A stretch of DNA of 54,102 bases from the NCBI GenBank assembly GCA_035297365.1, contig DATGZA010000060.1, forward strand, positions 1-54,102, written 5' to 3'. Source of the stretch: Nitrososphaeraceae archaeon. Its GTDB lineage: Archaea > Thermoproteota > Nitrososphaeria > Nitrososphaerales > Nitrososphaeraceae. Below are positions 4,748 through 54,102 of the stretch, piece after piece. Both the position numbers and the translations under genes were made by a program. Under the pieces are notes generated by a model, which was not told where the DNA came from, made no database searches, and saw only the letters and a program-made list of their open reading frames with translations. Numbering within the stretch: the first letter of the stretch is position 1; the number at the start of each line of letters is the position of its first letter.

Positions 4748-5755
4748 TTGCAAATAAAAGATAAAAAAGATATAGAATTTGGACTAACTATTCCACAAGG
4801 TTGGAGAGGTGGAGATCTACCATTAGAAGAAGAAAATGATCCGATTAAACAATACGAGTTTTCAAAAAAGATAGCCCTTGCTGCAGAGCAGGCTAGATTC
4901 AATTCCATTTATGCTTACGATCATTTTATCCCGCATTTTAGAGATGATGTTGAAAAAAATATTTTTGAATGTTTTACACTGATTTCATCAATTGCATCAA
5001 TAACACAGAAAATTAAGATAGGGCAGGTCGTCACTTGTAATTCTTATCGCAATCCGTGTCTTCTATCAAAAATGATTGCTACCTTGGACATAATCAGTAA
5101 TGGTCGGGCTGAGGTCGGATTGGGTGCTGGATGGTATCAAGAAGAATATATGTCATATGGATATGAATTTCCATCTCACGTTACACGAATCTCTCAATTG
5201 GATGAATCTTTACAGATAATGAAAAAAATGTGGGAGGAAAATACGATTTCTTTTATAGGCAATTACTATAAAATATCAAACGCAATATGTAACCCTAAAC
5301 CGATTCAGAATCCGCATCCTATAATAATGATAGGAGGCTCTGGAGAAAAATATCTTCTTAAAGTTGCGGCAAAACATGCTGATAGATATAATCTTTTTTT
5401 TGGCTCTCCAGAGAAGATGAAAAGAAAAATTTCCATTTTGAAAAGCTATTGTAAGGACATAGGAAGAGATCCAGAAGAGATAGAATATTCTATCGTACTT
5501 CCTTGTCTTATCAGAGAATCTGAAGATGAGATCGATAGTATCTTGATTAAACATAAAAGGAAAGATAAAAGCATGAAAGAATATCTGCAGTATCTCGTAG
5601 ATGGCGTTACAATAGGAACTCCTGAAAAAATAATTAAAGGATTGAACGAATATGTGAATGATGGAGTAAGTCACTTCATAATGCATTTTTTAAATTTGAA
5701 TGTCAAAAGTTTAGAATTATTTCAATCACAGGTGATAAAGAATTATAAACTATAA
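4748..5755 (+). CDS. LLM-class (probably F420-dependent) oxidoreductase
   Basis: YDHF, SYRNPCLLSKMIATLDIISNGR, GLGAGW, CNPKPIQNPHPIIMIGGSGEK motifs. Confidence 0.9.
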   Translation: MQIKDKKDIEFGLTIPQGWRGGDLPLEEENDPIKQYEFSKKIALAAEQARFNSIYAYDHFIPHFRDDVEKNIFECFTLISSIASITQKIKIGQVVTCNSYRNPCLLSKMIATLDIISNGRAEVGLGAGWYQEEYMSYGYEFPSHVTRISQLDESLQIMKKMWEENTISFIGNYYKISNAICNPKPIQNPHPIIMIGGSGEKYLLKVAAKHADRYNLFFGSPEKMKRKISILKSYCKDIGRDPEEIEYSIVLPCLIRESEDEIDSILIKHKRKDKSMKEYLQYLVDGVTIGTPEKIIKGLNEYVNDGVSHFIMHFLNLNVKSLELFQSQVIKNYKL

Positions 5756-17390: not shown

Positions 17391-17720
17391 ATGACAGTAT
17401 ATAATAATTTTCCAATGAGAGACTGGCATATTAAACATATGGAAAAAACTATTGTAAAGTTTGTAACAGGATTATCGCCTAATCCATCACACTGGGAAAA
17501 GAGACAGCATAAAAGATTTAATAATATATATCGCACTTGTGGAAAAATAAATCACGATATTAAACATGGAGTAACAAGTGAAGAAGTTCAAGATTTTTTG
17601 CAGAAAATTCACGACGATTCTTCTTTTTTTGATCTACGAAAAAAAGAGGGTGTAATAGGAAGGTTAGAGGAAGTAGAGAAACATTTTGGCCCTTCTAGAA
17701 ATAATGGATTGAATATTTAA
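17391..17720 (+). CDS. Conserved hypothetical protein, paralogue of 41584-41904
   Basis: Shares NNxPMRxWHxKxMEKTxVKxxTGL and DIKHGV with the second copy. Confidence 0.8.
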   Translation: MTVYNNFPMRDWHIKHMEKTIVKFVTGLSPNPSHWEKRQHKRFNNIYRTCGKINHDIKHGVTSEEVQDFLQKIHDDSSFFDLRKKEGVIGRLEEVEKHFGPSRNNGLNI

Positions 17721-22499: not shown

Positions 22500-23042
22500 T
22501 TATTATTTAAAATCGTTGTAATATCTATTACTATTAATTGTGTAAAAATTTCATACATTGAATATATTTATTTTTATTACTTGATTACATGAATGTTGAT
22601 AATATATCAAAAGACCTATACTTCTTAACTTAAATTTGTCTAATAGTTTTTCTTATTCTATAAACATTCTAAGGATTTGAAATAAAATCTTCATCATTAG
22701 ACTAATCTCGTACTCGAATTATTTTATATTATCTTAAATATGACCAAAATTTGATAGGTTTGATCATAACATACTTGTGCATGGTGTGAATTTATGTTAG
22801 ATAGTGTGTTTAGGACGAATTTGATGAATGATAAGAACTAGTATTTTTTTAAAGTTTAGGATGTGTGTTATGGAATTGATATATTAAAAATTTACAATCC
22901 TGGAAATATATATTATTGCGTTTAATTGCTTGTATATGTATTTCAAGATTTAAAATGTAATATTTTTGTATATTTATATAGATTTTGAGAAAAGGCATTC
23001 CATTTACTGGAACTGTATTTTAAACATAGACTTTTAAATATA

Positions 23043-23180
23043 TGCTATTTGTTGCAACCATGAAAATCAATACTATGTTCTGAATTTTTTACGGGAACAA
23101 ATTAATAAAATGGATATCTTATATGAGTGTGACCTTCTAGAAGCTATAGAAAGAAATGATCATATAGCTCAACTAAAGCA
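23043..23180. mobile_element. Degenerate MITE-like element, copy 1
   Basis: Internal similarity to 33229-33369 (ATGAAAATCAATA, CGGGAACAAATT.ATAAAAT); imperfect inverted ends TGCTATTTGTTGCA / CAACTAAAGCA. Confidence 0.6.
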
Positions 23181-24916: not shown

Positions 24917-26029
24917 TTATGAAATCCTAACACCGGTATCGGCATTGAAGAGGAGAATATCCACATACTTGGTTTCCAAAATGAGTTTGGTCCCATTTTT
25001 AAGAGAAGAATCTACAGATAAATTACTTACATGAATGATATTATTATTTTCAAGTTTAAATTCATATATTGTTTCATCTCCTAGCATTTCCACAAAGCAA
25101 AGTTCTCCTTTGAAATGCATAGAATTAGAATCACTATAATCAGCTAAAAATATATCTTTTGGTCTGATACCAAGAGATATCTTTTTTATAGATTTTCCAA
25201 AAGACGAAAGTACATCATACCATATCTTAGGAACGTTTATCGACATGTTCCCAGATTTCAAGGAAATTAGTTGACCATCTTCCTTTCTTATTATCTCAAA
25301 ATTCAATATATTTATTTGAGGATTTCCTATAAAATTTGCAACAAAAATATTCTGTGGCTTTTTATAAACTTCTTCTGGAGTACCTACCTGTTGAATTATC
25401 CCCTCATTTAAGATGACTATTTTGTCCGCCATACCCATTGCTTCAGTCTGATCATGAGTAATGTATATTGTAGTAACGCCGACACGTTTTTGAAGTTTTT
25501 TTATTTCCGATCTCATTTGTATCCTCAGTTTTGAATCTAGATTGCTTAGAGGTTCGTCCAACAAAAATAGTTTAGGTTCTCTCACTAACGCTCTTCCTAA
25601 TGCCACCCTCTGCATTTGTCCTCCACTTAATTCTCGCGGTTTTCTTTTTAATAACTCTGAAATGCCCAGCATTTGAGAGATTTTTAATACTTTATCTTTA
25701 ACTTCTTCTTTAGATAATTTTCTCATTTTCAGAGGAAATGCGATGTTGTCGTAGACTGTCATATGAGGATATAGTGCATAATTCTGGAAAACTACAGCAA
25801 CATCTCGATCTTTTGGAGGAATTCCATTCACCAATTTGTCGTCTATAAATATTTGTCCATCAGTAGGGTCTATTAGTCCAGATATACACCGTATAATTGT
25901 TGTTTTCCCACATCCGGAAGGACCCAATAATACTAAGAATTCACCATCTGCTATTTGGATTGAAAAATTTTCAATTGCTGTAAAGTTCCCGTATTTCTTG
26001 CTTAATCCCGTTACCCTGACCCTTGACAG
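24917..26029 (-). CDS. Sugar-type ABC transporter ATPase (MalK/UgpC-like); start extended to a CTG
   Basis: GPSGCGKT, VFQNYALYPHMTV, LSGGQMQRVALGRA, LLDEPLSNLD, YITHDQ. The frame continues 34 codons upstream of the track start (SRVRVTGLSKKYGNFTAI...GEFLVL) to CTG at 26029. Confidence 0.9.
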   Translation of the reverse strand: MSRVRVTGLSKKYGNFTAIENFSIQIADGEFLVLLGPSGCGKTTIIRCISGLIDPTDGQIFIDDKLVNGIPPKDRDVAVVFQNYALYPHMTVYDNIAFPLKMRKLSKEEVKDKVLKISQMLGISELLKRKPRELSGGQMQRVALGRALVREPKLFLLDEPLSNLDSKLRIQMRSEIKKLQKRVGVTTIYITHDQTEAMGMADKIVILNEGIIQQVGTPEEVYKKPQNIFVANFIGNPQINILNFEIIRKEDGQLISLKSGNMSINVPKIWYDVLSSFGKSIKKISLGIRPKDIFLADYSDSNSMHFKGELCFVEMLGDETIYEFKLENNNIIHVSNLSVDSSLKNGTKLILETKYVDILLFNADTGVRIS

Positions 26030-30006: not shown

Positions 30007-30609
30007 TTGATATCTGTGAAGTCATACCTTTTCATCATTTCATTAATAATATTGATAGGCATAGGTTATAATAATCTAGAAGCCCAAGAGGTAGTAGATA
30101 ACGAATCCCAAAATACCAATTTTCCTGGCATTGCTACTCCAACAGCCCATGTTGTAATAGAAGGAACGGATCTAGATGACAAACTTAAAGGTGGTTCGGG
30201 AGATGATACAATTGATGGTGGTAAAGGAGATGATACCCTGCATGGAAATGAAGGAGATGACAAGATAGACGGAGGTAAAGGGAATGATGTTCTAGAAGGT
30301 GGACCGGGTGACGATGAAATTAATGGTGACGCTGGAGAAGACGAGATTTACGGTGCAGAAGGAGATGACGAAATAGACGGAGGTAAAGGAGATGATATTC
30401 TAGAAGGTGGACTTGGAAAAGATCAGATGTCTGGCGGCGGAGGATCTGATAAATTTATATGTGATAAAAAAGACAAAATCAAAGATTTTAATTCTTTGGA
30501 ACATGACCGCATATCGGGTAATTGCAAATATGTGGATAAAGGAATAATAGTACCAAAAATACCCAAATATCCGAAAAATTCGTTCCTTGATAACTCCTTA
30601 TTTAGGTGA
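30007..30609 (+). CDS. Secreted RTX/hemolysin-type calcium-binding protein
   Basis: Signal peptide; about 10 GGxGxDxLx nonapeptides; C-terminal Cys pair. Confidence 0.88.
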   Translation: MISVKSYLFIISLIILIGIGYNNLEAQEVVDNESQNTNFPGIATPTAHVVIEGTDLDDKLKGGSGDDTIDGGKGDDTLHGNEGDDKIDGGKGNDVLEGGPGDDEINGDAGEDEIYGAEGDDEIDGGKGDDILEGGLGKDQMSGGGGSDKFICDKKDKIKDFNSLEHDRISGNCKYVDKGIIVPKIPKYPKNSFLDNSLFR

Positions 30610-30933
30610 TAACCATTATTTGATTGTCGATGTATATAAATGATTTATTTATACCTTATCTAGAATGATGACCTAAAATTATTGATGAATTTTTTTAATT
30701 CTTTTTTATTATTTGATATTTGGAATTTCATTTATAATTCCAAACAATTTACTATAATATAAGATTTGGATAAAATGCCTTCGCAGTCTCTCTTTTAAAT
30801 AGAATATGACAATATGAAAAAGATATAAAATAACATTTATTAATATAATACCGTAACGGAAATAAGAAAGCTTGCTAGAATCAATATTAAAAGATAGATC
30901 AATTTTTTAGTAATTCAGTATAATGACAGTATA

Positions 30934-31578
30934 GTGTTTATATTAAATCACATGTATTTTATAAGAGTGTATTTTATAACATGCATTATTTTATTTATAG
31001 TAACAATTAACGTAATTATCCCTTTAAGTGAAATAAGTGGTCAGGCTAATTCTACTACTATTATTGAAAATGAGGCTGTAAATTCAGTTAATACTTCTGA
31101 TTCCGGTTCTTATGGAACCATAAAGGTGGACGTCATAATTGAGGGAACTGTTAATAATGACAAGATCAGAGGGGGAGAAGGTAATGATGAGATATTGGGT
31201 GGTGGAGGAGATGATCTAATAAGTGGTAAGATGGGTAACGATCGATTAAAAGGTGACCAAGGATATGATACATTGAAGGGAGATGAAGGGGATGATGAAC
31301 TTGATGGTGGGCCAGGAAATGATGAACTTGATGGTGGGCCAGGAAATGATGAACTTACTGGTGGAGAAGGTGCTGATAAATATATTTGCGATAAGATGGA
31401 TAAAATAATTGGTTTTAATTCTGATGAAGGCGATACCAAGATAGGAGTATGCAAGGTTAAAGACAAAGGAGCCTTATCATCTTCATCTGATACTAAAAAT
31501 GAAGATAAAAAGTCAGATAAAGATAAGAGTAAGGACAATTCGAAAGATTCAAATGGTAAAATATTCCCAACTAGTTAG
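30934..31578 (+). CDS. Secreted RTX/hemolysin-type calcium-binding protein, paralogue of the previous gene
   Basis: Signal peptide; GGxGxD repeats; shares IEGT..DK and DK(F/Y)ICDK.DKI..FNS..D..I.G.C with the neighbour. Confidence 0.88.
   Translation: MFILNHMYFIRVYFITCIILFIVTINVIIPLSEISGQANSTTIIENEAVNSVNTSDSGSYGTIKVDVIIEGTVNNDKIRGGEGNDEILGGGGDDLISGKMGNDRLKGDQGYDTLKGDEGDDELDGGPGNDELDGGPGNDELTGGEGADKYICDKMDKIIGFNSDEGDTKIGVCKVKDKGALSSSSDTKNEDKKSDKDKSKDNSKDSNGKIFPTS
31294..31356. repeat. Perfect 27-bp tandem repeat (about 2.3 units) in the RTX gene
   Basis: GATGAACTTGATGGTGGGCCAGGAAAT at 31294 and 31321, partial at 31348. Confidence 0.9.
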
Positions 31579-33140: not shown

Positions 33141-33228
33141 AAAAAATATAACAAATTACTTTTATAAAAATATTTTAATTATAGAGTTTGAAAATAATCT
33201 CCATTGAACATCAATCAGTGCCAATATT

Positions 33229-33369
33229 TGGTATGTTGCACAACTATGAAAATCAATAACATGATATAAATTTTTGGCGGGAACAAATTGATAAAATAGA
33301 TTTCTTATAAGAATGTTGATCCATCTTTTTAGTCAAAATTGACTATAATCATAGTTGCAATACAAAGCA
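33229..33369. mobile_element. Degenerate MITE-like element, copy 2
   Basis: Inverted ends TGGTATGTTGCACAACTATGA / TCATAGTTGCAATACAAAGCA; interior similar to 23043-23180. Confidence 0.65.
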
Positions 33370-41583: not shown

Positions 41584-41904
41584 ATGGTCATTTTGATACC
41601 AAATAATTATCCTATGAGAGAATGGCATGTAAAAAATATGGAAAAAACAGTTGTTAAATATTTGACAGGTCTTCCAGAAAATGCTTCTCCATATCAGAAA
41701 CGACTTTTCAAAAAATATGGTGGTTTTAATAAAGTTTGTAATCGTATCAAATACGATATAAAACACGGTGTAAAAAATGAGGAAATTGTTTTATTTTTAG
41801 AAAAAATAAAAACTGATTCAGATTTTTCTGATTTAAGAAAATTAGAAGGTTATCCAGATAGAATAAACGAGATTGAGACAAAGTTTAATGACATACATTT
41901 TTAA
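41584..41904 (+). CDS. Conserved hypothetical protein, paralogue of 17391-17720
   Basis: NNYPMREWHVKNMEKTVVKYLTGL...YDIKHGV. Confidence 0.8.
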   Translation: MVILIPNNYPMREWHVKNMEKTVVKYLTGLPENASPYQKRLFKKYGGFNKVCNRIKYDIKHGVKNEEIVLFLEKIKTDSDFSDLRKLEGYPDRINEIETKFNDIHF

Positions 41905-41957: not shown

Positions 41958-42176
41958 ATGACATGTAAGGGCATATGCTTACGACACAAAGCATTAAAAC
42001 CTAAAAATGGTCAGCGTTACATATTAGGTCAAAAACGTTGTCAGATATGCAATATTTTCATTATGTGGCCTATTGCAACATGTCCTTGTTGTGGAGGACG
42101 GTTAAGAACTAGACCACGAAATGGAAAGTACAAATCGATGTTAAATGAAAGTATAATACACAGTCGGATATTGTAG
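41958..42176 (+). CDS. Small basic Cys-rich protein of a type common in Nitrososphaerota
   Basis: MTCKGIC.RHKA, GQKRCQIC, CPCCG.RLRTRPR. Confidence 0.8.
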   Translation: MTCKGICLRHKALKPKNGQRYILGQKRCQICNIFIMWPIATCPCCGGRLRTRPRNGKYKSMLNESIIHSRIL

Positions 42177-43343
42177 GTAGTAGTCTCCTTAAATAATACC
42201 TTAGGTGCAATTTAATATTCAATTTATTACAAATTCCAGAACCAGAATAGAAATATTCAAGATATTTTGTATAAGTAGAAAGCTTAAAGCGATATTTCTT
42301 TTCTCTACCACAATTGTTTATAGATTTCCTTAATCATCATAGATTATTGTTTAGATCATTTACTGGATTGGAATCATCTGAATTTGATTCTATTTCCAAT
42401 GAAATAGAATCAAAATATCCAAAATAGGAGATAAAACGTTTGTTTAAGCAAAAGAACAAGATCGTTAGATGCAGGAAGACATTTCAAAGATTCAGCTGAA
42501 GTCAGATTCATAATGTTTCTTGTGCTTTACAAATAATACATAATTGACTTTTTCATATAAGGATTCTTGTTTGAGTTAGATCAATGCAATGTATATAGAG
42601 ATATACGATATATTGAACTTCCAGTAAGAAGCCGTGTTCCGCTGCCTCAAAATCTATACAATCCTACAACAGGATCAAGAACAGTAGGCGGAAGATATTT
42701 CATCTTAACGATACTACCTATTATCTATTCTGACGTAAAATGTATTTACCATTGTAAAATATATCAGTACACTTATGACAGATGCCAGGATACCACATAC
42801 ATACTTTCAAGATTAATCTCGATGCCATTGCTCTTGAAGTTTAGCTCTGAACATTTCACCACAGAGCCATAATTAACATGAATTTTTTACAGAACTCAAA
42901 ATAAATGTCGACAATTTTGCTAGGTAACATATCAAAAATAGAGTTTACCTCGGCAGAAAATATTTTTGATATGGATTATTTGATTATGATTATGATTATG
43001 TAACCGATTGTTATTATTATTCGCTATACTCTAAAGTCGATCCCAGAAAATACAAATATAATACATACAAACTTATCTTACCTAATGTTCTCTCAATTTC
43101 GGATAAACTTAAATATGGCAGGATATTCTCAGCTTTAGTCTTTCCTCTGCTCAACCTAATAATACGTCGAGATAATTATATATACATTTAAAGAAATACT
43201 TTTTGGAGCTTATAATAGATACATATATGATTAAAATTATTCCAAAGTACGAGGATCATACTTTAATAAGACAAATATGTTAATAATATTAAAAAATAAA
43301 TGTTATATTAATACGTTGTAGTATCAATGCATCTTAATAAAAG

Positions 43344-43361
43344 TTTTTCGGCGCCGAAAAA
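43344..43361. promoter_or_regulatory. Palindromic operator-like site, copy 1
   Basis: Perfect palindrome TTTTTCGGCGCCGAAAAA about 90 bp upstream of the 88-aa gene. Confidence 0.7.
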
Positions 43362-43451
43362 TTGCTTGATGAGATTTAGAATTTTGATAATATATATAAT
43401 TAGTATATAATTAGAGGATCAAATTTAAATATGTGACTCATTATTAGTTAA

Positions 43452-43718
43452 TTGATGGTTACACAATTAGGTGAAATCAGACGTGTAATTGTGGAAGATA
43501 AAGGTAAAAAAGCGAAGATCTTATTCGATCCTGCTGGGACAACAACACCACCTCTATGGTTAAAACTGTCAAATGACAGTACGAGTTCATTTGTAGCAAT
43601 GGTATCAGCTGCTTGTACGGGATTTATCTATGGTGGTCCTGTATTCGGCGGTCCACATGTGCACGTAACATACGACACTGGCGACAACGAAGTTGATGAA
43701 ATACAGATACATCGTTAG
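43452..43718 (+). CDS. Small hypothetical protein (possible OB-fold)
   Basis: Clean ORF; TATA-like TTTAAAT upstream and pyrimidine tract downstream; ATG at 43455 is the likelier start. Confidence 0.75.
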   Translation: MMVTQLGEIRRVIVEDKGKKAKILFDPAGTTTPPLWLKLSNDSTSSFVAMVSAACTGFIYGGPVFGGPHVHVTYDTGDNEVDEIQIHR

Positions 43719-43720
43719 AA

Positions 43721-43739
43721 CTTCCCCTTTCTTTTTTTT
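43721..43739 (+). terminator. Archaeal-type pyrimidine/T-rich terminator
   Basis: TTCCCCTTTCTTTTTTTT directly after the stop codon. Confidence 0.5.
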
Positions 43740-45339
43740 GAAGTTGGTGATATCTAGTTTGGAACAGAAATGAGATAGTTGAAGTTGAGATATAACCCAC
43801 TTAAATCATATTATGCTAATAGCAGGATGGAAATAAGATTATTAACATATTAAATTGTATACAGAGGGGTTTAATGAAAATAATGCTTAGTTATAAAAAT
43901 TAATTTATAATATGAACAATATGTCTAAATAATTGAATAATAAATTATTTTAATATTGGATAATAATAATAATAACAATACAAAAAAATCTGAATTTATT
44001 CCAGTACATTTATTGAAATAGATATAGATTCAAAAAATATTTTAATTTCAGATGGATAATCACATGTAATCACATGGTAATTTATATTCATTGATTTAAC
44101 AATAAAACTTCAGACTATAGTCAAATCCGATCACATCAGGATTAAAAGCGATAGCGGTACCAAAATAAGCGTCTAACGTCACTATAAAAGCAATATTTTT
44201 TAGCAATTATTAGAAATGATAATAGGACTTTTATAATTGCAGAGACATGTATGAAAAAGTAATTATATAATTTATTATAGATCAGTTGTTCAAATTACTA
44301 CATCGAATCATTTTTTCTCCCATTTATTTTATTTACTCTATCATTTTTTATAATATTCTTTTAAATCTTATTTTCTAATTTCTTTAATAAATCTCATGGC
44401 ATATCCCTTTTCATAGTTAACAATTTCCTGACGATAAAAATTATACTTTATTAGATTCTATTATATTGTATGTAGTTTATTCGTAACAATTTAGAACAGA
44501 ATGACTTTAAAGAATAAAACAAGTGGTATGGAATGTTTTTGCTAGGAGAAGATTCAATATGACTATTGAAAAGATTTACCATCCAATTTATTTAATCAAT
44601 GAATAAGCAAATTCCATGAAAATTTATTTATCTATGTTAATTTATTCTCTAGATGAAAGAAATCAACAAGACTGATTATTATAATAATAATAATGATGTT
44701 GATGTTACATTTCTGAAATTACTAATTGAATCAATAGAATATGCGGATTTTCAAATACGTTCAGAACCCTTAATCAATTTTTGATTGATGATGAAAAACC
44801 TATGTTAATTCATACAGGCCATATAGACATGTAAAAAATATAAGAAAAATAAAAGAAGTTTTCACTTTGGTGAAAGTTAGCATATGTATCCTTTTTACGC
44901 TTTGAAAATGACAAATGTGGTAGAATGACATTTTCAGAATTTGCTGATCCAAAATTAGTATGCAGCGATTTAAGTTCAAATCTCAATATAATGGGATAGT
45001 ATAAGATTCCGGTAGACCATATAGCAGTTTGGGATATAGTGTAATACAGTATGATATCATTCCTACAGAAATTTATAGAATTGCACAAATATACACCATA
45101 TGCAAAAAGGGTTATTTTCCTCTGTCTCTATATAAAATGCGATCATTGGTAATATATTTACACCAGAAAAAAGTCAGATAAATATTATATAATACACAAA
45201 TAAGATATTGTTTAATTTTACAGTCAAAAGCATTTATCTTCGCAATTAAATTAATCATCAACCTGAGAGTTAACTAACAATTATAGTGATTACATCTTTC
45301 ATAGAAAAAGAAAAAAATGTGATTTATATAATAATTTCT

Positions 45340-45702
45340 ATGGCGGTAGAAACTATAACAGCCACATTATGGCCAGAAAAAGTAACAGACTCTGTTCTCC
45401 CAGTAGTAGTTAACTTTAGTGCAGTTCGTTGTGGTTTTTGTCAAGCTTTAGAACCATTGTATAATCGATTATCTGGACAGTATAATAATAAGTTGATATT
45501 TCTAAAGCTTATGGTAGACGATCAAAATAATCAGGAATTATTAGATAGGATATCGATTGGAGGTACTCCTATGCTAAAGTTTTATTGTAAAAATAGAGAG
45601 ATAGGTGAGCATATTGGATATGCAATAGAACCAGTATTAAAACAAAAGATAGAAACCTTTTTATCAGAAATGGAATTCTGCATTAAGAATAGTACGAAAT
45701 AA
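45340..45702 (+). CDS. Thioredoxin-family protein
   Basis: PVVVNFSAVRCGFC, GTP cis-Pro motif. ATG at 45340 preferred over the track start. Confidence 0.85.
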   Translation: MAVETITATLWPEKVTDSVLPVVVNFSAVRCGFCQALEPLYNRLSGQYNNKLIFLKLMVDDQNNQELLDRISIGGTPMLKFYCKNREIGEHIGYAIEPVLKQKIETFLSEMEFCIKNSTK

Positions 45703-46336
45703 GCCAAGTAATTATATTGTTGGTAAATTTAAAAGAGTCTCTTAGGCTAAGACTAATCCTATTTTCCAATGCGTTTTGTTTTCAACCTTGGATTATAAAA
45801 ATAAATGAATAACTAAATCACCTGTAGTGTACATATTATTGGTCACAGTTAAAACTATTATTTTAGTCTATAATGTTTGGACACCAAGATAAATATGGAT
45901 CTGTTACTTTATCATTCATCTGGAATAATATTTCATACCTTTCTTTCTAAATGACAATTAAGTTATATACTACAAAATTTCGAAAATAGTTTTAACTTCA
46001 TTATCAAATTTAAACCAAACTTCTTTATATATTTGTAATGGGAGGGGACGGGTAACGGCCAAATTTGTATATAATTCAAATATCCATATCTCTAATTCAA
46101 AGACACGACATTCAAGTTTGAATATAGACATATAGACAGGTTTAACAAATGTCTGTAATCATGATGAACTTATTATCGAAACAATTTATGTTTAATTTGA
46201 GGTAATTTATATATAAAAACAAAAAGATATCGACAAGGTGAAACTAATAATTATCCGAAAAAATGGTTCTAAAAAAGTTTCAAATATAGTTTAATGCAAG
46301 GAATAAAAAAAATTGGGGATAATTTTATCTACTATT

Positions 46337-46789
46337 CTAAATCTGATCTAAATAAAGGTATTTACCGAATTCACTCCCGAGCCATATTCCAGGTGCATCT
46401 ATACCAGCATTTCCAGGAACTGGTCCATGAAATAGTCCGTATGTTGTAACAGGTGGGCCACCTTCTGATATTTTTACGGTAACGTTCTTAACCAGCCATT
46501 TTTTATTCGAATCGTAGCAAAGGTACACGCTATATTTTGTATTGTTTACATCACTAATATCTATTCTAATGGGCTTTGTTGGATTATTTTTATCTGGGTT
46601 ATTTACTGTCGAATTGGTGTCATTTTCATCTAGAACAAAATCATCTATATCCGCTCTTTCGAATGTATTGTCACCACTTCTAGCCAATCTAAACTCTCTA
46701 TTTCCAACACCTAAATAAACCGGACCGTCAGCGTCAGCTCCACTTTCATCTGCTGTTTCTATATGTACTTCTATTCTTCTTATATGCAT
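46337..46789 (-). CDS. Stand-alone PLAT/LH2-like beta-sandwich protein
   Basis: V.IETAD.SGADADGPVYLG, FERADIDDF, WLVKNVTV, WL: matches the PLAT consensus (TGD..GAGTD..VYL, FERG..D.F, W....V.V). Confidence 0.7.
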   Translation of the reverse strand: MHIRRIEVHIETADESGADADGPVYLGVGNREFRLARSGDNTFERADIDDFVLDENDTNSTVNNPDKNNPTKPIRIDISDVNNTKYSVYLCYDSNKKWLVKNVTVKISEGGPPVTTYGLFHGPVPGNAGIDAPGIWLGSEFGKYLYLDQI

Positions 46790-46888
46790 TACATATTTAT
46801 TACATTACTTATCTTTAAATATGATCCTCTAATCATAGACCCATATTACTAAATATATTTATCATATTATTCAATGTTAAACAAAAAT

Positions 46889-46906
46889 TTTTTCGGCGCC
46901 GAAAAA
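46889..46906. promoter_or_regulatory. Palindromic operator-like site, copy 2
   Basis: Perfect TTTTTCGGCGCCGAAAAA between the divergent PLAT-like gene and the peptide-tyrosinase unit. Confidence 0.7.
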
Positions 46907-47511
46907 TTACAATAAAACATTAGATCTTATAATCAATAGGATGGCTATAATTGGTCAGATATATGCCATCCTGTTGTCAATTACCCATCTTTTGTGTAAT
47001 GATATAATTATATGGTATTTGTATTATTTATTATATTTGGTAACAAAAGTACTGCATAAGAAGTATGGTCCTCTCTATAATATAACGATCCTATTTTGGT
47101 ATGTCTTTTTATCAATCGTAATATCCTACTTTTTCCGTTAGAGATTTCAAATGTAATAGTATCATTTTCCATTAAATTTAGAGAAAAAGCATATATTGAT
47201 ACTCAATTATAGCCGAAGGTCTAATAACCGTTATACTATTCAATTTCATATTGTACATTGATCCAAATAAAATATGTTATATAATTTAACCTTAGATATT
47301 AATTAGATTCAATGACTTAGGGTTTTACACATTATATGACTATAATATATTATCTAAATGAGTTCGGAAAATGAGTTACCTAAAATGACATTTTCTAATT
47401 ATTGTAATATAATATATATTTTATAGAAATAATATATTATTTACATGAACAATTGCAATTTCTATAAAATTACGAATATCTTTATATAATTTAACTTGTT
47501 GCTCATATAAC

Positions 47512-47727
47512 ATGGAATCAGCAAACAAGACGCTGACCGATGAAGAGATGAAAAATTTGGCAAAATTATATTGGGCAAATGCAAAACGATCCCAGAAGAA
47601 ATCAAGAAAACTAAGTCTTGATAAAATGCCAGGAGAAGAAGAGATGGAATCCGAGTCTATGGGTAAAATGCCAGGAGAAGAAGAAGAGATGGAATCTGAG
47701 TCTATGGGTAAAATGCCAGGAGAGTGA
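47512..47727 (+). CDS. 71-aa peptide with Met/Glu-rich tandem repeats (candidate tyrosinase copper partner)
   Basis: Basic/helical N-half, then KMPGEEE(E)MESESMG twice plus KMPGE. TATA-like TTTATATA upstream; ends 6 bp before the tyrosinase ATG. Confidence 0.75.
   Translation: MESANKTLTDEEMKNLAKLYWANAKRSQKKSRKLSLDKMPGEEEMESESMGKMPGEEEEMESESMGKMPGE
47622..47724. repeat. In-frame 42/45-bp tandem repeat
   Basis: TAAAATGCCAGGAGA starts at 47622, 47664 and 47709. Units differ by one GAA codon and one synonymous change (TCC/TCT). Confidence 0.92.
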
Positions 47728-47733
47728 AAAAAG

Positions 47734-48699
47734 ATGGGACATAGAAGAGATTTGAATAGTCTTAGTGCAGCTGACAGAACTGCCCTTGTCAACTTGATGC
47801 TAAATTATATCAATGATGATATAGTATGGCAACATAATCCTCTTAATCCAAACGCAATAGTTCACCATGAAGGCGAACATGCATTCATTACACACAGAAA
47901 CTTTATTGGAGATTTAGAATCATGGCTTGCTTCACATGGTGGAAGCAAATTTGTTCCTTTACCAATGTGGGATCCTGGTAATTCAATTCCTTCTGAGTTT
48001 AATGTTGTAAAGCCTCAGGACAATAGCACTCCACGCCCACCTTTACAAAATCTTAATCCCAATATACCAAAACCTGCAAATCTAAATTCACCAGCATTAT
48101 GCACCTTGACAACTAACGGGGATATACTTTGGAATAATCATGTTGATGGGTGGCATGGCGCAGTTCATGTTACAATTGGTGGTACTATGGGAGATATTAC
48201 AATAGCACCGGCTGCACCAATATTTTTCTGTTGGCACGGATTTGTGGATGAAATCTATGAAGACTATCTAACATGTCGCTGGAGTGGATGGGAGGACCTT
48301 GGTGGTATAATTACATCTGCACCTTCTGTGGCTTCATGGGCAGCTAATCGTTTGGATTGTTTTGTCAGAGGGCAAGACTCTCATATGTGGCACAAATGGT
48401 GGAACGGTTCAAGCTGGAGTGGATGGGAGGACCTTGGTGGTAAAATCACGGCTGCGCCTGCTGTTGCCTCAAGAGGAACAAACAGATTGGATTGCTTTGT
48501 TAAAGGTCAAGATAATGCCTTGTGGTACAAGTGGATAGATAGTTCAGTAGTTCATGGTCACCCAGGAGTTTGGAGTGGCTGGCATTCTTTAGGGGGGATT
48601 CTTGACAACGCGCCTGCCGCAGTATCTTGGGGTCCAAACCGTATAGACTGTTTCGTCCGAGGAATGAACAACCATATGTGGCACAAATGGAGGGCATAA
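47734..48699 (+). CDS. Tyrosinase (type-3 copper) domain fused to three PLL/fucose-lectin-type beta-propeller repeats
   Basis: RRDLNSLS start; CuA candidates WQH, VHH, FITHR; LPMWD; CuB HGAVH..IGG.M...P..PIFFCWH..VD. Repeats WSGWEDLGG..T.AP.VASW..NRLDCFVRG.D.HMWHKW. Confidence 0.88.
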   Translation: MGHRRDLNSLSAADRTALVNLMLNYINDDIVWQHNPLNPNAIVHHEGEHAFITHRNFIGDLESWLASHGGSKFVPLPMWDPGNSIPSEFNVVKPQDNSTPRPPLQNLNPNIPKPANLNSPALCTLTTNGDILWNNHVDGWHGAVHVTIGGTMGDITIAPAAPIFFCWHGFVDEIYEDYLTCRWSGWEDLGGIITSAPSVASWAANRLDCFVRGQDSHMWHKWWNGSSWSGWEDLGGKITAAPAVASRGTNRLDCFVKGQDNALWYKWIDSSVVHGHPGVWSGWHSLGGILDNAPAAVSWGPNRIDCFVRGMNNHMWHKWRA

Positions 48700-49229
48700 T
48701 ACTATATTCTATTTCTTCACCTTCCTTTTTTGTCCCATATTAATTTGTGTATGATTAATGTATAGTAGGTATTGAAAGAATAAGAAACAATGAATCATTG
48801 TATATTTTAAATGCAGTCACATCTCTGTTAGAAGAAAAGTTATGACATATCTACCCTTAAAATAGACATATTATCTCATAATAAGTTGTAATCTCACATT
48901 TAAATTTGATAAATGCGTCAGATTCTTTAAATGTGTTTATCACTCGTTTCAATGTAACACCTTCTTTCAGCAGATATATTTCTATTAAACTAACTCATTA
49001 AAGAAAGAAATAAAGATGTTAATTTTTACATCGATAGAATTCAGTAATGAAAAAGAAACCAAAAAACTAATGGAACTGTTAGAGGAAAATTAATTTAACA
49101 CGTTAATTCTTACACATTCAAACGGAGGTGTGTCAACTGTTTTTAACACAATTTTGTAGTTCACAAATAGAAAATACTTAACCGATGAAAAGAATATAAT
49201 AATTAAAAAATATACACTCTGTTAATTAT

Positions 49230-49658
49230 ATGAATTCAAATGAAATTGCTGATATCTTAGATGTTGTTGTGATTCCTATTGTGGTAGTACTAATTGCACT
49301 CCTTTGGTCAGATATTCAATCTTGGCATAGAAAAAGAAAATTTAAAAATTTAATTTGTAGAGAATTAGAAGAATTAAAGCCGCCAAAAAAGAAAGATCCA
49401 GAAAAAAATTGGAATGAACATTTTAATAAAAGATTAATTCATCGTGAGATTTTTAATAATGTCGCCGAAAATCGTGACTTTATTCTCAGCCTTGATCCTG
49501 ATTTAGTTTATTATGTCAGCAACTTATGGAATGCTTATGATAATTCAGATTATGAACAATTCAAATACTATCTAACTAAAATTTTATCTCATTATGAGGT
49601 AAAAAATTCAGAATCTATTAAAGAGAAATGGGAAAATCTATTAAATAACAAGAATTAA
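49230..49658 (+). CDS. Hypothetical protein with one N-terminal TM helix
   Basis: VVVIPIVVVLIALLW followed by basic RKRKFK and a helical domain. Confidence 0.7.
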   Translation: MNSNEIADILDVVVIPIVVVLIALLWSDIQSWHRKRKFKNLICRELEELKPPKKKDPEKNWNEHFNKRLIHREIFNNVAENRDFILSLDPDLVYYVSNLWNAYDNSDYEQFKYYLTKILSHYEVKNSESIKEKWENLLNNKN

Positions 49659-50274
49659 ACTTTTAGATTAAAACAGGATTGATAATTCCATTGAATAACA
49701 AGTCGATACAATTCTGAGGGCTTCCAATTTGCATTATAACAGGGTTCGGTAACATAATATTTAAGTTTTCAGGTATTTCAAATACGATTATTTTTACTGT
49801 TCAATAAATATAAAATTCTGATTGTGTACAATTCCCACCAGAGGCTCAGAATTCTAACCTCGAGTCCGCTTGTTTGGTTCAGTCATCAGTCGTTATAAAA
49901 CGATAATATCGAGATAAACTTTTTGAACTTTAATAAATATTATTTGTTTTATTAAAATTATATTAAAAAACAAGTTGAACGTCCGGGCATGACGTTGATA
50001 TCGACTCTAAGCATTTAGTAATTTTAAATATTCTATCTAAAAAGGTTTATTTAATACTTTTTTCTTGAAATTAATATTTTCTATATATATTCCAGAAAGC
50101 AAATACAAAATAATTATAATAGAACCCTATTAATGAACTATCCAAATCCCGACAAGATTATTAAATATTCAGATGACCCTTACTTAAAAAGAGAATCCTA
50201 TTAATAGATTTTGTATCAATAGTTTATTAAAATGTAATACAACAGTGGCAATTTATTTAAATTTATTTGTCAAA

Positions 50275-50292
50275 TTTTAAGGCGCCGAAAAA
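50275..50292. promoter_or_regulatory. Palindromic operator-like site, copy 3 (2 mismatches)
   Basis: TTTTAAGGCGCCGAAAAA upstream of the lipase gene. Confidence 0.55.
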
Positions 50293-50527
50293 AATTACTA
50301 TATTCACAATAATTTATAATAATTAAGACAAAAAGATTAATAAAAAAAAAGGTTTCTTATGATAGGTAAATAATTATAAGTATTATATTTTTCTAAATCA
50401 AACAAAAAACTTAAAACTACAATAAAAAACCTTTAAACTCCACTCTACTACTCAAGCCTTAGCTATGTAATAGAACATTATAAAAATTACCAACATGTAT
50501 AAAAACATCTTATTTTTTTATAATAAC

Positions 50528-51403
50528 ATGAAAGAAAAATATACAACATTATGTGCTATAACCATACTATTATTATTAACTGTAATCTCTAGCTCATTTT
50601 TTTTTCCAACAGCGAATGGTCAACAGCGACTTCCAGTTCTTTTGATACATGGTTATCTAAATGATAAATCAGTATGGAATGATTGGGTAATGGATCTTAA
50701 AGCACTTGGCTTTAATGTAAAAGCAGTAGAATTTAATGGAAATGATAAATGTGGAAGTGCCGCAGATCATGCGGAACAGTTAAGAAATATAGTTGAAGAT
50801 TTCAAGACAAGTACTGGATCAGATAAGATAAACATAGTTGGTCATAGCAAAGGTGGATTAGATGCAAGAGTATATTTGGCTAATGATCTTGCAAATGATG
50901 ATATTGCAAATCTAATAATGATTGGAACTCCAAATGCAGGCTCTCCAAGAGCAGAAAATAGAGATCTTGAAGTGATTAACAATGCCAATAAGATTTGTCG
51001 GCCATTTCCAGATCAAGCTATAAATGATTTAATACCTGGAGCTGCAGCTACTGAAGTAAAAAAGAATGATCATACTCAATATCATACTATTGCTGGAGAC
51101 TGGAAAGCTATCTTTGACAGTGGGATGTTCATTTCCACACTTATTCCCACACCACCGTTTGGGATACTTGTTTGGGCACTTGTTTGGACACTTATTGATA
51201 ATGATTGTATAGATGACGTAGCAATAGTTACTTATCAATTCGATGGAAATATAGAGATCGATGGGTCTGATGATGGAATTGTACCGCTCGAGAGTGTTGA
51301 ATCAGGAGGATTTAACTCACTTGGGCATACAGATAATTGTCATACAAATTTGTTTAGCAATGAAGAGTTTAATAAGGCAATGACTATACTTGGGAGGCAA
51401 TGA
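50528..51403 (+). CDS. Secreted alpha/beta-hydrolase (lipase/esterase-like)
   Basis: Signal peptide from MKEKY; PVLLIHGY, nucleophile GHSKGG, IGTPNAGS, DDGIVP, CH. Confidence 0.88.
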   Translation: MKEKYTTLCAITILLLLTVISSSFFFPTANGQQRLPVLLIHGYLNDKSVWNDWVMDLKALGFNVKAVEFNGNDKCGSAADHAEQLRNIVEDFKTSTGSDKINIVGHSKGGLDARVYLANDLANDDIANLIMIGTPNAGSPRAENRDLEVINNANKICRPFPDQAINDLIPGAAATEVKKNDHTQYHTIAGDWKAIFDSGMFISTLIPTPPFGILVWALVWTLIDNDCIDDVAIVTYQFDGNIEIDGSDDGIVPLESVESGGFNSLGHTDNCHTNLFSNEEFNKAMTILGRQ

Positions 51404-51723
51404 CTATACTTAATGTTTAATTAAAAAAGATTATTGGATAGTAATCTCATTAAAACTTTATATTCCGTCTTCCAAATACCGATTCACTCCTTCTACTAGA
51501 CATTTCTAAAATGGTGAGTGCATATAGTTTTTCATTCGAATCAGCTTATATGCTTTATAATACAATGTGTAAGTTCATACCTATAGCAGTATGTTTTATC
51601 TGTTTGGATACAAGAAATCTAATAAAATTCTCTGTTACATATATGTGTCTTACCTTTAGAAACTGTGTTTCCAAGGATAGAACTGAAACTTTTGATGATT
51701 ATTGAGGATATCAAAAAAGTTTT

Positions 51724-51846
51724 TTACAAGAAAAAAACCGGTAGAGGACTGTGTGCCTGACCTTGAACTGAAAGGATTACTGACGTTGGTACAGTTAAAT
51801 TAAATACTGAAAAAATTAGTAAAACCAATAAAGAAATTGTTCTCAT
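51724..51846 (-). other. 40-aa signal-peptide-like ORF, possibly a truncated gene
   Basis: MRTISLLVLLIFSVFNLTVPTSVILSVQGQAHSPLPVFFL*, stopping within adjacent homopolymer runs. Confidence 0.4.
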
Positions 51847-52154
51847 TTAATATAAAAAAATAATAGGAACTATTTATTTATATTTGTCATACAAAGAAAC
51901 ATTCTTCTCTTATTGAATATTAAATCGAAATCATTATTCAAAATTTTAGTAAATATAGTATCAGCTGATAAGTGCTAAAATATTTTCGGTTATAAAGATA
52001 AATTGCCAGGCTATTAATTAGGTTTACATTTTACGTTATTATTTATTTATATATTTATTAAGTTTGTCGGATGTAGAATCGTGCATGTAATGGCTTCTAC
52101 TACCTTACATTTAGTCATTATTATATCTCTTGATAAAAATGATATTAAACCTAA

Positions 52155-52172
52155 TTTTTCGGCGTCGAAAAA
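52155..52172. promoter_or_regulatory. Palindromic operator-like site, copy 4 (1 mismatch)
   Basis: AATTTTTCGGCGTCGAAAAATT at 52153-52174. Confidence 0.65.
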
Positions 52173-52795
52173 TTTGAGCCAAATATTTAAGTAGCCAATA
52201 CAATGATCGATAAATCATAAATTAATTGACAATAAAATATGAATTGTGGAATAATGAAAAAATAGCATCTGAGTTATTCTAGTTATTTAAGCATGCAAGG
52301 GAATTTATTTAACGATGTTCTTGATAAAGAGTAATAATTGAATCTCTTTCTATAAGACAATATTGTCATGTTGTGGGTCGTTTGAGTTACAAATTTGTTA
52401 CTAATCCATATTACAGAATGTATATTGATATAATTAAATTAACAGCATCTTTATAATAATAATTAATTCTCTTGTACATAAGGATTGGAATCTTCGTCAA
52501 TCAAATGTGGGTTCTACTTTCGGTTACTAAAATATTGGATTATAATATAAATACATTCGAGTAATCCAAGTTTATAATATAGTCATTATTGTTTATAGAA
52601 TCTTATTTATAAGTTATTTAATGACATTACTTAAACCAATAATACTATTATTACAAACTCCATTTCTTGTGAAATGAGATCAATTATCTAAAATCAACAA
52701 AACTATTGAAACAAATAAAAGATATAAAAATCAAGAATAAATTCATTACAAATAAAAGACAATCTTATAAGGTAAAGAATCGTTTAAATATAATA

Positions 52796-53116
52796 ATGTC
52801 TAAATTTAAACTCCCATTAAAGAGGACCGATTTGAAAGAAGGCGAATTGGTAAAAGCTGAAGTAGGAGATAAATCTATTGTGCTTGGAATGGTTAAAGGG
52901 ACAATATATGCAATGGATTCAGTTTGTTCGCACCAAGGAGGACCACTTGAGGAGGGATGGTTAGACGATTACGATCTTACCTGCCCTTGGCATCAAGGAA
53001 TTTTTGATATACGCACCGCTAAAGGTTCTCCTAAAACAAATTGGGTTACTGATCATAACTCCTATTCTGTCGTTGTTGATGAGAAAAGTGAAGAAATTTT
53101 TGTAGAAATAGATTAG
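52796..53116 (+). CDS. Rieske [2Fe-2S] ferredoxin
   Basis: CSHQGGPL and CPWH..FD; ATG at 52796 (MSKFK) preferred over the track start. Confidence 0.9.
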   Translation: MSKFKLPLKRTDLKEGELVKAEVGDKSIVLGMVKGTIYAMDSVCSHQGGPLEEGWLDDYDLTCPWHQGIFDIRTAKGSPKTNWVTDHNSYSVVVDEKSEEIFVEID

Positions 53117-53484
53117 ATATTAAATAGTGATCATATGTTATCTCTACATCTTGTATGTTCCCAAAACATTTCATCTGAATGGGCAAGGTCTGACTCATTG
53201 TTTACAATATGAACCTAAATAAAAAATATCTATAATATAGCTGGAGTAATAAAATTATAAATTTATAATTATATTTTTTCAATTGTTAAAAAATTATATT
53301 ATAACAATAAAATAATTAGAAACTCAAGATTCTTACTCTTACTCCCCCGTAGGATATGAAATAGGACCTAAATATTCATAACAATAGACACTGATAAATA
53401 TCAATCCACTAAACAACAAAGAATGAATTTTAAGTGCCAAGATCATAGCTATAGTCTGCTCTCACTATGTGTTATATATTTACG

Positions 53485-54102
53485 TTATTTAGATACTAGC
53501 TTATTCATTATGGATACATAATAATGAAAAGGATTAACGCTGTAAATCTGACCATTAAATTCTGCTACTATTCTGGTAGTGTGAGTTCCAAGTATGATAT
53601 TATTTGCAATAACTTCATTAGTAATACCATCTATCACACTAACGGTATTTTGTATCACTACGTATAATAAATTATTCATAGTATCATAATATAAATGACG
53701 TACATGGTCATAGAGCTCGATTGTTTTAACAACAGAGTTGTCTGTACGGTTGATGACAGAAACCGTGTTGTTACCAGAGTTGGCAACATAGAGGAGGTTT
53801 TTTGTTGGGTTAACGGCTAATGCTTCTGGAAATTTAGCTACTTTGATTGTATCAATAACAGAGTTGTCTGTAGAGTTGATGTCAGAAACCGTGTTGTTAC
53901 CAGAGTTGGCAACATAGAGGAGATTGTTAGCAGGGTTAAGAGCTAATTCTTTTGGGTTTTTACCTACTTTGATAGTGTCTGCAATAGAATTGTCTGTAGA
54001 GTTGATGACAGATATAGTTTCCTCTCCATAATTAGCAACGTAGAGGAGATTGTTATTTGAGTTAAGAGCTAATTCTATTGGGGCTTTGCCCACTATAATT
54101 GT
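53485..54102 (-). CDS. YVTN/YncE-type beta-propeller repeat protein (partial, start beyond the right edge)
   Basis: Repeats LYVANSGNNTVSVIN.TDNSV..TIKVG..P..LA.NP with a 126-bp DNA period. Confidence 0.9.
   Translation of the reverse strand, partial: TIIVGKAPIELALNSNNNLLYVANYGEETISVINSTDNSIADTIKVGKNPKELALNPANNLLYVANSGNNTVSDINSTDNSVIDTIKVAKFPEALAVNPTKNLLYVANSGNNTVSVINRTDNSVVKTIELYDHVRHLYYDTMNNLLYVVIQNTVSVIDGITNEVIANNIILGTHTTRIVAEFNGQIYSVNPFHYYVSIMNKLVSK

Follow-up and report, generated by a model that had tools for sequence, protein, structure and literature searches.

The closest described counterparts of the element reported here are the sites on which proteins of the ParB family load, namely parS for ParB, the Noc-binding sites (NBS) for Noc and the operators of KorB from RK2. 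KorB is a transcription regulator whose palindromic operator has AT-rich arms and a GC centre and occurs at multiple intergenic sites at variable distances from promoters. The NBS is found at many sites dispersed on the Firmicutes chromosome, in connection with nucleoid occlusion. In archaea, operators of the TrmB, Lrp/AsnC and ArsR types usually have a fixed position, overlapping or adjoining the factor-B recognition element, TATA box or start site. Sections of PMC7383237 give the consensus of both parS and NBS as an unspaced palindrome with TTTC/GAAA arms. Sections of a recent survey (10.1101/2025.10.10.680097) name KorB as a ParB homologue, describe chromosomal ParABS as thought to be absent from archaea, and report canonical fusions of ParB with a helix-turn-helix (HTH) that are scattered in archaea, rarely accompanied by ParA and unlikely to segregate chromosomes, leaving their role open. 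Here we describe a palindrome, the 18-mer TTTTTCGGCGCCGAAAAA, that is present in four copies in 54,102 nt of a Nitrososphaeraceae archaeon (assembly GCA_035297365.1, contig DATGZA010000060.1, positions 1 to 54,102; this whole stretch is called the window below). From sequence comparison we propose, with a probability of about one half, that these palindromes are parS- or KorB-operator-like loading sites of an orphan archaeal ParB-type protein.

An initial inspection of the letters of this DNA, which we call the sequence-only reading, had reported four copies of the palindrome with 0, 0, 2 and 1 mismatches and had noticed none in the first 43 kb. Both observations were borne out. The 18-mer has perfect dyad symmetry, and its copies, to which no strand is assigned, lie at 43344-43361 (copy 1, perfect; the 22-bp dyad spans 43342-43363), 46889-46906 (copy 2, perfect), 50275-50292 (copy 3, two mismatches) and 52155-52172 (copy 4, one mismatch). 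In copy 3 (TTTTAAGGCGCCGAAAAA) the left half-site is degenerate and the right half intact, and in copy 4 (TTTTTCGGCGTCGAAAAA) a C to T change affects the right half of the core. A search of both strands over all 54102 bases returned no further match with three or fewer mismatches. In 100 dinucleotide-preserving shuffles the mean number of matches was 0.01, and none of the 100 gave four. The GC core CGGCGCCG at up to one mismatch was confined to the same four sites (shuffle mean 0.31). When the flanks of the four copies were aligned in both orientations, making eight sequences, conservation was limited to the palindrome. The half-site GCCGAAAAA at up to one mismatch occurs 20 times in the window where 10.95 are expected; the four palindromes account for seven of these, and a separate population of isolated half-sites was rejected because there is no clear excess beyond these members. 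The G+C content is approximately 30% throughout the window and the island that holds the palindromes shows no compositional break.

All four copies are outside supported open reading frames (ORFs), with the longest stop-free frames over copies 1 to 4 being 36, 86, 28 and 58 codons. The gap from copy 1 to the next ATG-initiated ORF (43455, + strand) is 93 nt. Copy 2 is located between divergent genes, 99 nt from the start of a PLAT-like ORF (46789, – strand) and 34 nt from that of a small conserved ORF (46941, + strand). Copy 3 precedes a hydrolase ORF (50495, + strand) by 202 nt and copy 4 precedes a Rieske ORF (52796, + strand) by 623 nt. The copies had been called intergenic and upstream of ORFs; the first term is correct for all four and the second is loose for copy 4. 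A fixed distance from TATA boxes was not found, the palindrome centres being about 43, 102, 108, 211 and 632 nt from the nearest ATGs.

To sample relatives, species-representative genomes were scanned for exact matches to the inner 16-mer, so that only perfect 16-mers were collected. Nitrososphaerales are an order of soil ammonia-oxidising archaea and make up well under 1% of the species in the scanned collection. The scan gave at least 121 distinct 16-mer sites and, among the matches listed, 24 of them are in 18 Nitrososphaerales genomes and 97 are elsewhere. Genomes labelled Nitrososphaerales, Nitrososphaeraceae or Nitrososphaera were counted in this set, most of them carrying the family label Nitrososphaeraceae; one of the 18 is labelled only Thermoproteota and was grouped with the others by its ParB-type protein. 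Because the order has such a small share of the species, and because the chance of a match is lower at 31% than at 50% G+C, the excess in Nitrososphaerales is very large, although its exact fold value is not derivable from a total that is a lower bound.

Several features distinguish the Nitrososphaerales sites from the others. Among the matches listed, 20 of the 24 Nitrososphaerales sites extend to the full 18-mer, compared with nine of the 97 other sites. Positions 9 and 11 from the centre were not fixed by the search, yet they hold A in 42/48 and T in 42/48 of the Nitrososphaerales half-sites, respectively; the conserved unit is therefore the 22-bp dyad AWTTTTTCGGCGCCGAAAAAWT. For listed sites with at least 2 kb of sequence, an open frame of 150 or more codons runs over the site in none of 16 Nitrososphaerales cases compared with 60 of 63 in other taxa. 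The latter is what would be expected of chance matches in coding DNA, and because the 18-mer is free of stop codons in every frame its absence from genes in Nitrososphaerales is not forced. In these relatives the gap from the site to the next gene start ranges from 33 to about 1330 nt, and the neighbouring genes are very different from those of the window island. The palindrome had been taken as the mark of one 9-kb island; it is instead spread across the lineage. What sets the window apart is the clustering of four sites inside 8.8 kb, since 14 of 15 long loci from relatives have a single palindrome and only one has a second site within 2 kb. DNA-level matches of the window among the fetched loci came only from Nitrososphaerales genomes, and locus-against-locus blastn revealed flanks in common in one sub-family alone, which is the small-ORF block discussed below. 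Together, these data indicate that the palindrome is a real, non-random, lineage-conserved and strictly intergenic site of Nitrososphaerales.

One gene stands out beside this site. In locus L018 (the loci of relatives are numbered) a gene encoding a 292-aa protein ends 182 nt before the palindrome, and its product matches the Pfam families ParB_N (PF02195, E-value 1.9e-24) and HTH_ParB (PF17762, 8.6e-17). A tblastn search with this protein showed that its gene also ends beside the palindrome in L010, L035, L113 and L115, and comparison of flanks added L089 as a sixth locus. The same search gave no meaningful E-value in any non-Nitrososphaerales locus listed. Among the matches listed, ParB-adjacent sites thus account for six of the 24 Nitrososphaerales sites, in a set where every locus contains the palindrome by design and ParB-type genes lacking the site could not appear. 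Five of the genes stop 0, 12, 12, 48 and 182 nt before the 18-mer; the L089 gene runs into the site with its last codons. The genes farther downstream vary and include a DUF4280/PAAR-like gene of a contractile-injection-system cluster, a trypsin-like gene and, in L018, a caspase-like peptidase gene that comes after a 168-aa ORF of no family. Because these downstream genes differ, the ParB-type gene is the constant partner of the site. Two palindromes of one Nitrososphaera genome, in L010 and L014, lie inside a contractile-injection-system gene set (DUF4280/PAAR-like, eCIS_core), and this set directly follows the ParB-type gene.

All-against-all comparison of flanking ORFs showed four other recurrent neighbours: a module of the small ORF with a 34-aa ORF, a cyclase pair, a GNAT pair and a zinc-ribbon pair. 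The last is a small ORF approximately 120-260 nt from the palindrome in L016 (~1685-1800, – strand) and L055 (~1040-1155, + strand), with 49% identity over 39 aa; apart from the small-ORF module, no further small neighbour was found to recur.

The ParB-type protein was compared with structures in the PDB. The best matches were to Noc (7.6e-28 with 7ng0 and 1.1e-27 with 7nfu), followed by Spo0J (1.4e-26), with KorB at 1.2e-11 (8qa8); overall, Noc, Spo0J and ParB structures were matched at 1e-28 to 1e-19, and the alignment with Noc spans the HTH. The G-x-R-R box is present in the forms GHRRYRA and GNRRRKA; across 122 members of the family it ranks, together with the HTH, among the most strongly conserved columns. 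Proteins of this family are common and carry the name ParB in Nitrososphaera records, one of which is a complete genome. The L010 protein is 45% identical to that of L018 over 284 residues, and the L035 gene is spread over three frames and possibly disrupted. Its sequence marks the protein as a genuine relative of ParB and Noc. Scanning of ORFs in the flanking 2 kb at L010, L018 and L035 gave no ParA-like family, and no N-terminal ParA-binding peptide of the type described in sections of 10.1101/2025.10.10.680097 is visible in the two full-length proteins. Because neither a ParA partner nor a ParA-binding motif was found in the material scanned, the gene and its site are not classed as a partition system. 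PADLOC gave no convincing match for two ParB-type proteins.

The pairing of site and gene resembles ParB-parS in several ways. Both sites are unspaced palindromes with TTTC/GAAA arms (as given for parS in sections of PMC7383237). The site is at or near the 3' end of the parB-like gene, here in six loci, the protein combines ParB_N, HTH_ParB and the G-x-R-R box, with Spo0J and ParB structures matched at 1e-26 to 1e-19, and sites may be clustered, as the four in 8.8 kb are here. The differences are that the 2-kb flanks of L010 and L018 showed no ParA gene and that all of the archaeal sites are intergenic. Noc is the best structural-database match of the protein, and the NBS, according to sections of PMC7383237, is likewise an unspaced palindrome, its TTTC/GAAA arms enclosing a G/C centre; by contrast, the archaeal site differs in length, and archaeal cell division is unlike that of Firmicutes. 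With KorB of RK2 the likeness is in ParB-family membership (the match to 8qa8) and in multiple intergenic sites at variable distance (43-632 nt from the ATG in the window, whose relatives show gaps of 33 to about 1330 nt). It differs in that the setting here is chromosomal and archaeal rather than a bacterial plasmid, no KorA-like partner was identified, repression at the archaeal sites is something that we infer, and the archaeal protein resembles Noc and Spo0J far more closely in sequence than it does KorB.

These comparisons suggest how the palindromes might work. A ParB-type dimer would nucleate on the 22-bp palindrome as ParB does on parS, Noc on NBS and KorB on its operators. The four sites of the window, all within 8.8 kb, would load the complex onto long AT-rich spacers that hold the promoters of accessory genes, namely those of the 87-aa ORF, the PLAT-like ORF, the small ORF and the tyrosinase, hydrolase and Rieske genes. 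The loaded protein would then coat or patrol the four-site region, and the outcome would be either that flanking promoters are modulated at variable distance, most simply by repression, or that the DNA is organised locally. We infer the ParB-type protein as the binder, its use of a nucleotide and the effect of binding on transcription. What appears to be new is the combination of a ParB-family protein with a candidate palindromic site in an archaeal, ParA-less and strictly intergenic setting.

Several observations weigh against this proposal. The ParB-type gene is absent from the window, both by tblastn with E-values up to 10 and by Pfam searches of 39 ORFs, and the statement in the sequence-only reading that no cognate regulator is evident in the window was thereby confirmed. 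Eighteen of the 24 listed Nitrososphaerales sites have no ParB-type gene in their flanks (2 kb on each side for some, 300 nt for eight). The six ParB-adjacent cases may go back to one ancestral arrangement and not be six independent events. The scan sampled perfect 16-mers only, from which the number of sites per genome and the number of site-free genomes are not derivable. Strict confinement to intergenic DNA would be expected of operators more than of chromosomal parS sites. Finally, the archaeal site is 18-22 bp with arms 6 bp apart, compared with 16 bp and a 4-bp centre for parS and NBS in sections of PMC7383237.

If a KorB-like reading of the palindrome is true, this would be a first case of ParB-clamp-based gene control on an archaeal chromosome. 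In its broadest form, which we regard as unlikely, Nitrososphaeraceae would use a ParA-less orphan ParB-family protein as a nucleotide-gated clamp that silences or insulates islands of accessory genes at a distance. This clamp would load at the 22-bp palindrome beside its own gene and at dispersed or clustered copies in island spacers, and the islands so controlled would encode secreted enzymes, contractile-injection systems, proteases and signalling proteins. In effect, a KorB-like mechanism would have passed from bacterial plasmids to an archaeal chromosome and would act there on TBP/TFB-type promoters. If the KorB-like reading is wrong, the palindrome is still a conserved and undescribed operator of Nitrososphaeraceae. 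In either case the site is useful. Canonical ParB proteins of archaea are known with no assigned function or target, and an adjacent candidate site makes the question directly testable; transcriptional regulation in ammonia-oxidising archaea is almost unmapped, so a conserved cis-element with a candidate binder is of value. The sequence-only reading had spoken of a candidate undescribed regulon. Motif-string and topic searches found no published description of the motif or of a target for archaeal ParB-type proteins, and a literature string search for the motif core returned a single match in unrelated virology.

The sequence-only reading had proposed an operator for a dimeric transcription factor. 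The general idea survives in that the site is a dyad, intergenic and conserved and shows no RNA compensation; the parts that found no support are an island-specific regulator and a classical operator at fixed position. In line with this earlier view, the palindrome could be the classical operator of a different dimeric factor that controls a dispersed regulon of secreted and accessory genes, with the ParB-type gene as a mere neighbour or target. We consider this a serious alternative, although with less than an even chance. Dyad symmetry, intergenic placement and lineage conservation would suit any dimeric factor, and archaeal TrmB, Lrp/AsnC and ArsR-type operators are likewise dyad-symmetric intergenic sites in promoter regions. 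According to the ORF tables, a gene start faces the site within about 500 nt at 16 of 20 long-flanked sites. Neighbouring genes encode products with hydrophobic N-termini or secretion-related folds (Big_5, a DUF900 hydrolase, a trypsin-like protein and the hydrolase of the window), and copies 1 and 2 are 102 and 108 nt from two ATGs that have a core-promoter block in common. However, the distance to the TATA box or start is not fixed in either the window (43-632 nt) or the relatives (33 to about 1330 nt), no regulator of the TrmB, Lrp/AsnC or ArsR type recurs beside the site, and in the all-against-all comparison of flanking ORFs no DNA-binding protein except the ParB-type one recurs there. 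In the ParB loci, moreover, the site follows the 3' end of that gene regardless of which gene is downstream.

A second alternative is that the palindrome is a recombination or cassette-boundary site, such as the core site of a site-specific recombinase or the end of a mobile element, and that the genes between copies are exchangeable cassettes. We regard this as very doubtful. The short arms around a 6-bp symmetric centre and the unrelated accessory genes between copies are in keeping with it, and so are two copies that bracket a single gene in L005, the occurrence of the palindrome-plus-small-ORF module at three or more places in one genome, and the fact that the GNAT gene neighbouring this module is on one side of it in L023 and on the other in L078. 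By contrast, in most loci the copies are alike no farther than the 22-bp dyad, lacking both common flanks and a terminal-repeat structure, and Pfam searches detected no integrase or recombinase near the island, the sole transposase of the window being at 3643-4302. The conserved block of the module occurs without the palindrome in L074, and perfect conservation in 18 genomes with diverged flanks suits a binding site better than a scar. The sequence-only reading had itself named the end of a mobile repeat as an outcome that would overturn its proposal; with conservation that stops at the palindrome and no integrase found, this was not the case, and a MITE or an integron attC was not supported either. 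A longer repeat or mobile end was also looked for with a repeat finder, which added only a 20-30-nt promoter-like block common to copies 1 and 2.

The palindrome could also act as a signal in transcription, as a bidirectional terminator with a T-run on each strand and a hairpin or as a back-to-back core-promoter element, and this we hold to be very improbable. There is a run of five T on each strand. Copies follow the 3' ends of six ParB-type genes and of a histidine-kinase gene in L046, and the right arm is at the position expected of a factor-B recognition element for ORF 46941 and in L019, where the gap from the 18-mer to the ATG is 33-34 nt. However, folding as RNA yields only weak hairpins, of –4.6 to –6.9 kcal/mol with z near –1.3, and leaves copy 3 unfolded at –0.7 kcal/mol; the two uncompensated substitutions of this copy abolish folding, which argues that the palindrome is not an RNA stem. 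None of the eight terminator-like matches in a scan is a palindrome copy. At least five sites lie between divergent starts (copy 2 of the window, the first site of L005, L016, L019 and L023), the ATG distance is far too variable for a core-promoter element, and terminators are not normally conserved base for base where proteins have about 45% identity. A known RNA family was considered and rejected, since Rfam gave no match at gathering score in the whole window and none at E up to 1 in 42500-54102. No tRNA was found in the window.

Origin-recognition-type boxes of a replication origin are hardly conceivable, since multiple dyads with T-rich and A-rich arms in AT-rich non-coding DNA are reminiscent of such boxes but genes separate the copies, which are scattered over 8.8 kb, the loci of relatives are single-copy in 14 of 15 cases, there is no Orc1/Cdc6-type gene among the 39 ORFs and no GC-skew switch occurs at the island. 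Even taken together, the readings other than ParB-type loading sites and the operator of a different dimeric factor are improbable.

The window has prokaryotic genes at low density. In most of its supported genes a TATA-like box precedes the ATG by about 24-34 nt, as in leaderless archaeal transcripts. Taken with the DNA-level matches to Nitrososphaerales, these features point to an AT-rich member of the Nitrososphaeraceae. A 20-nt block, nearly the same in both places, follows copy 1 at 48 nt and copy 2 at 55 nt; it resembles a factor-B recognition element and TATA box. The first block is at 43410-43429 (+ strand), with its TTTAAA ending 26 nt before the ATG of the ORF at 43455-43718, and the second, in which one W position differs, is at 46814-46833 (– strand), with TTTAAA ending 24 nt before the PLAT-like ATG. 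This geometry, in which TTTAAA is placed like the TATA boxes of other genes in the window, makes the block a probable core promoter for both the 87-aa and the PLAT-like ORF. The block contains GAGGATCA, a third GAGGATCA is present left of copy 1 near 43250, and the two downstream genes are unrelated.

Downstream of copy 1, the 87-aa ORF (43455-43718, + strand) belongs to no known family and has a confident Atlas model (pTM 0.74). It had been labelled OB-like, a label for which we obtained only sub-threshold Atlas leads. Between copies 1 and 2 is a gene for a thioredoxin-fold protein (45340-45702, + strand; PF00085, E-value 6.5e-15). The 150-aa PLAT-like ORF (46337-46789, – strand) matches PLAT at E 5e-4 and 21.2 bits, which is under the 23-bit cut-off. 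The tyrosinase label held for the protein encoded at 47734-48699 (+ strand; E 4e-14), which also has a weak DUF346 repeat; the gene has three C-terminal repeats of about 135 nt. In frame with it is ORF 47512-47727, which has two 45-nt tandem units encoding acidic Met/Glu-rich repeats and is separated from the tyrosinase ORF by only a TGA and two codons, so the two could be one interrupted gene or be joined by read-through. A 142-aa ORF of no known family with a hydrophobic N-terminus follows at 49230-49658 (+ strand). The lipase-type label also held for the alpha/beta-hydrolase (lipase/esterase-type) at 50495-51403 (+ strand), which has a hydrophobic N-terminal segment. After copy 4 the next supported ORF encodes a Rieske-type ferredoxin (52796-53116, + strand). 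The earlier interpretation had offered defence as one possible programme, for which PADLOC gave no support; none of 12 island proteins had a PADLOC match at E below 0.001, one match at 0.008 looks like chance, and NCBIfam added nothing to Pfam on the island.

Just left of copy 4 is a conserved non-coding block (52011-52122, + strand) with the inverted repeat AGTAGAA...TTCTACT. It has 72% identity to L023 (2601-2714) over 114 nt and aligns with L078 at ~940-1050. In relatives the block lies between the small-ORF module and a GNAT gene.

The small ORF to the right of copy 2 (46941-47141, + strand) encodes 66 aa in the window compared with 23-30 aa in relatives, and is inside a conserved block of about 130 nt (46936-47051). 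This block follows the palindrome at 34-50 nt in L023 (2032-2157), L025 (2066-2158), L078 (~2065-2170) and L090 (364-450), and the copy that occurs without a palindrome in L074 is at 1291-1418 (– strand). The peptide of 23-30 aa is hydrophobic, and the length in the window reflects a lost stop. Indels in the block are mostly multiples of three, and the 3' half is nearly invariant and AT-rich. RNAalifold predicted two hairpins at –15.3 kcal/mol with almost no covariation (term –0.11). The block may encode a small protein, act as a small RNA or do both. A conserved hydrophobic ORF of 34 aa ending in CRWC is convergent with the small ORF in L023 (2288-2392, – strand), L025 (2315-2419, – strand) and L078 (2299-2403, – strand) and is absent from the window. 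The layout of these two ORFs recalls a small membrane toxin with an antisense partner.

Elsewhere in the window, fourteen periodic copies of 27 nt at 30174-31378 correspond to RTX-type calcium-binding nonapeptide repeats (Pfam HemolysinCabind, ORF 30952-31578), and the first of these arrays, at 30174-30451, is outside any ATG-initiated ORF of 100 or more aa. Two paralogous ORFs of 106-109 aa and no known family, at 17391-17720 and 41584-41904, are 49% identical; the second is followed by a Cys-rich, zinc-ribbon-like ORF of 72 aa (41958-42176), 1.2 kb before copy 1. A non-coding direct repeat of 94 nt, at 23037-23130 and 33223-33316, is 79% identical over copies that are 10 kb apart. The window also has a DDE transposase gene (3643-4302) and two genes, at 5072-5755 and 24917-25762, that seem to be N-terminally truncated, a luciferase-like match that begins at profile position 88 and an ABC ATPase that begins at position 75. 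The transposase, the truncated genes and the low coding density suggest gene decay or unusual starts.

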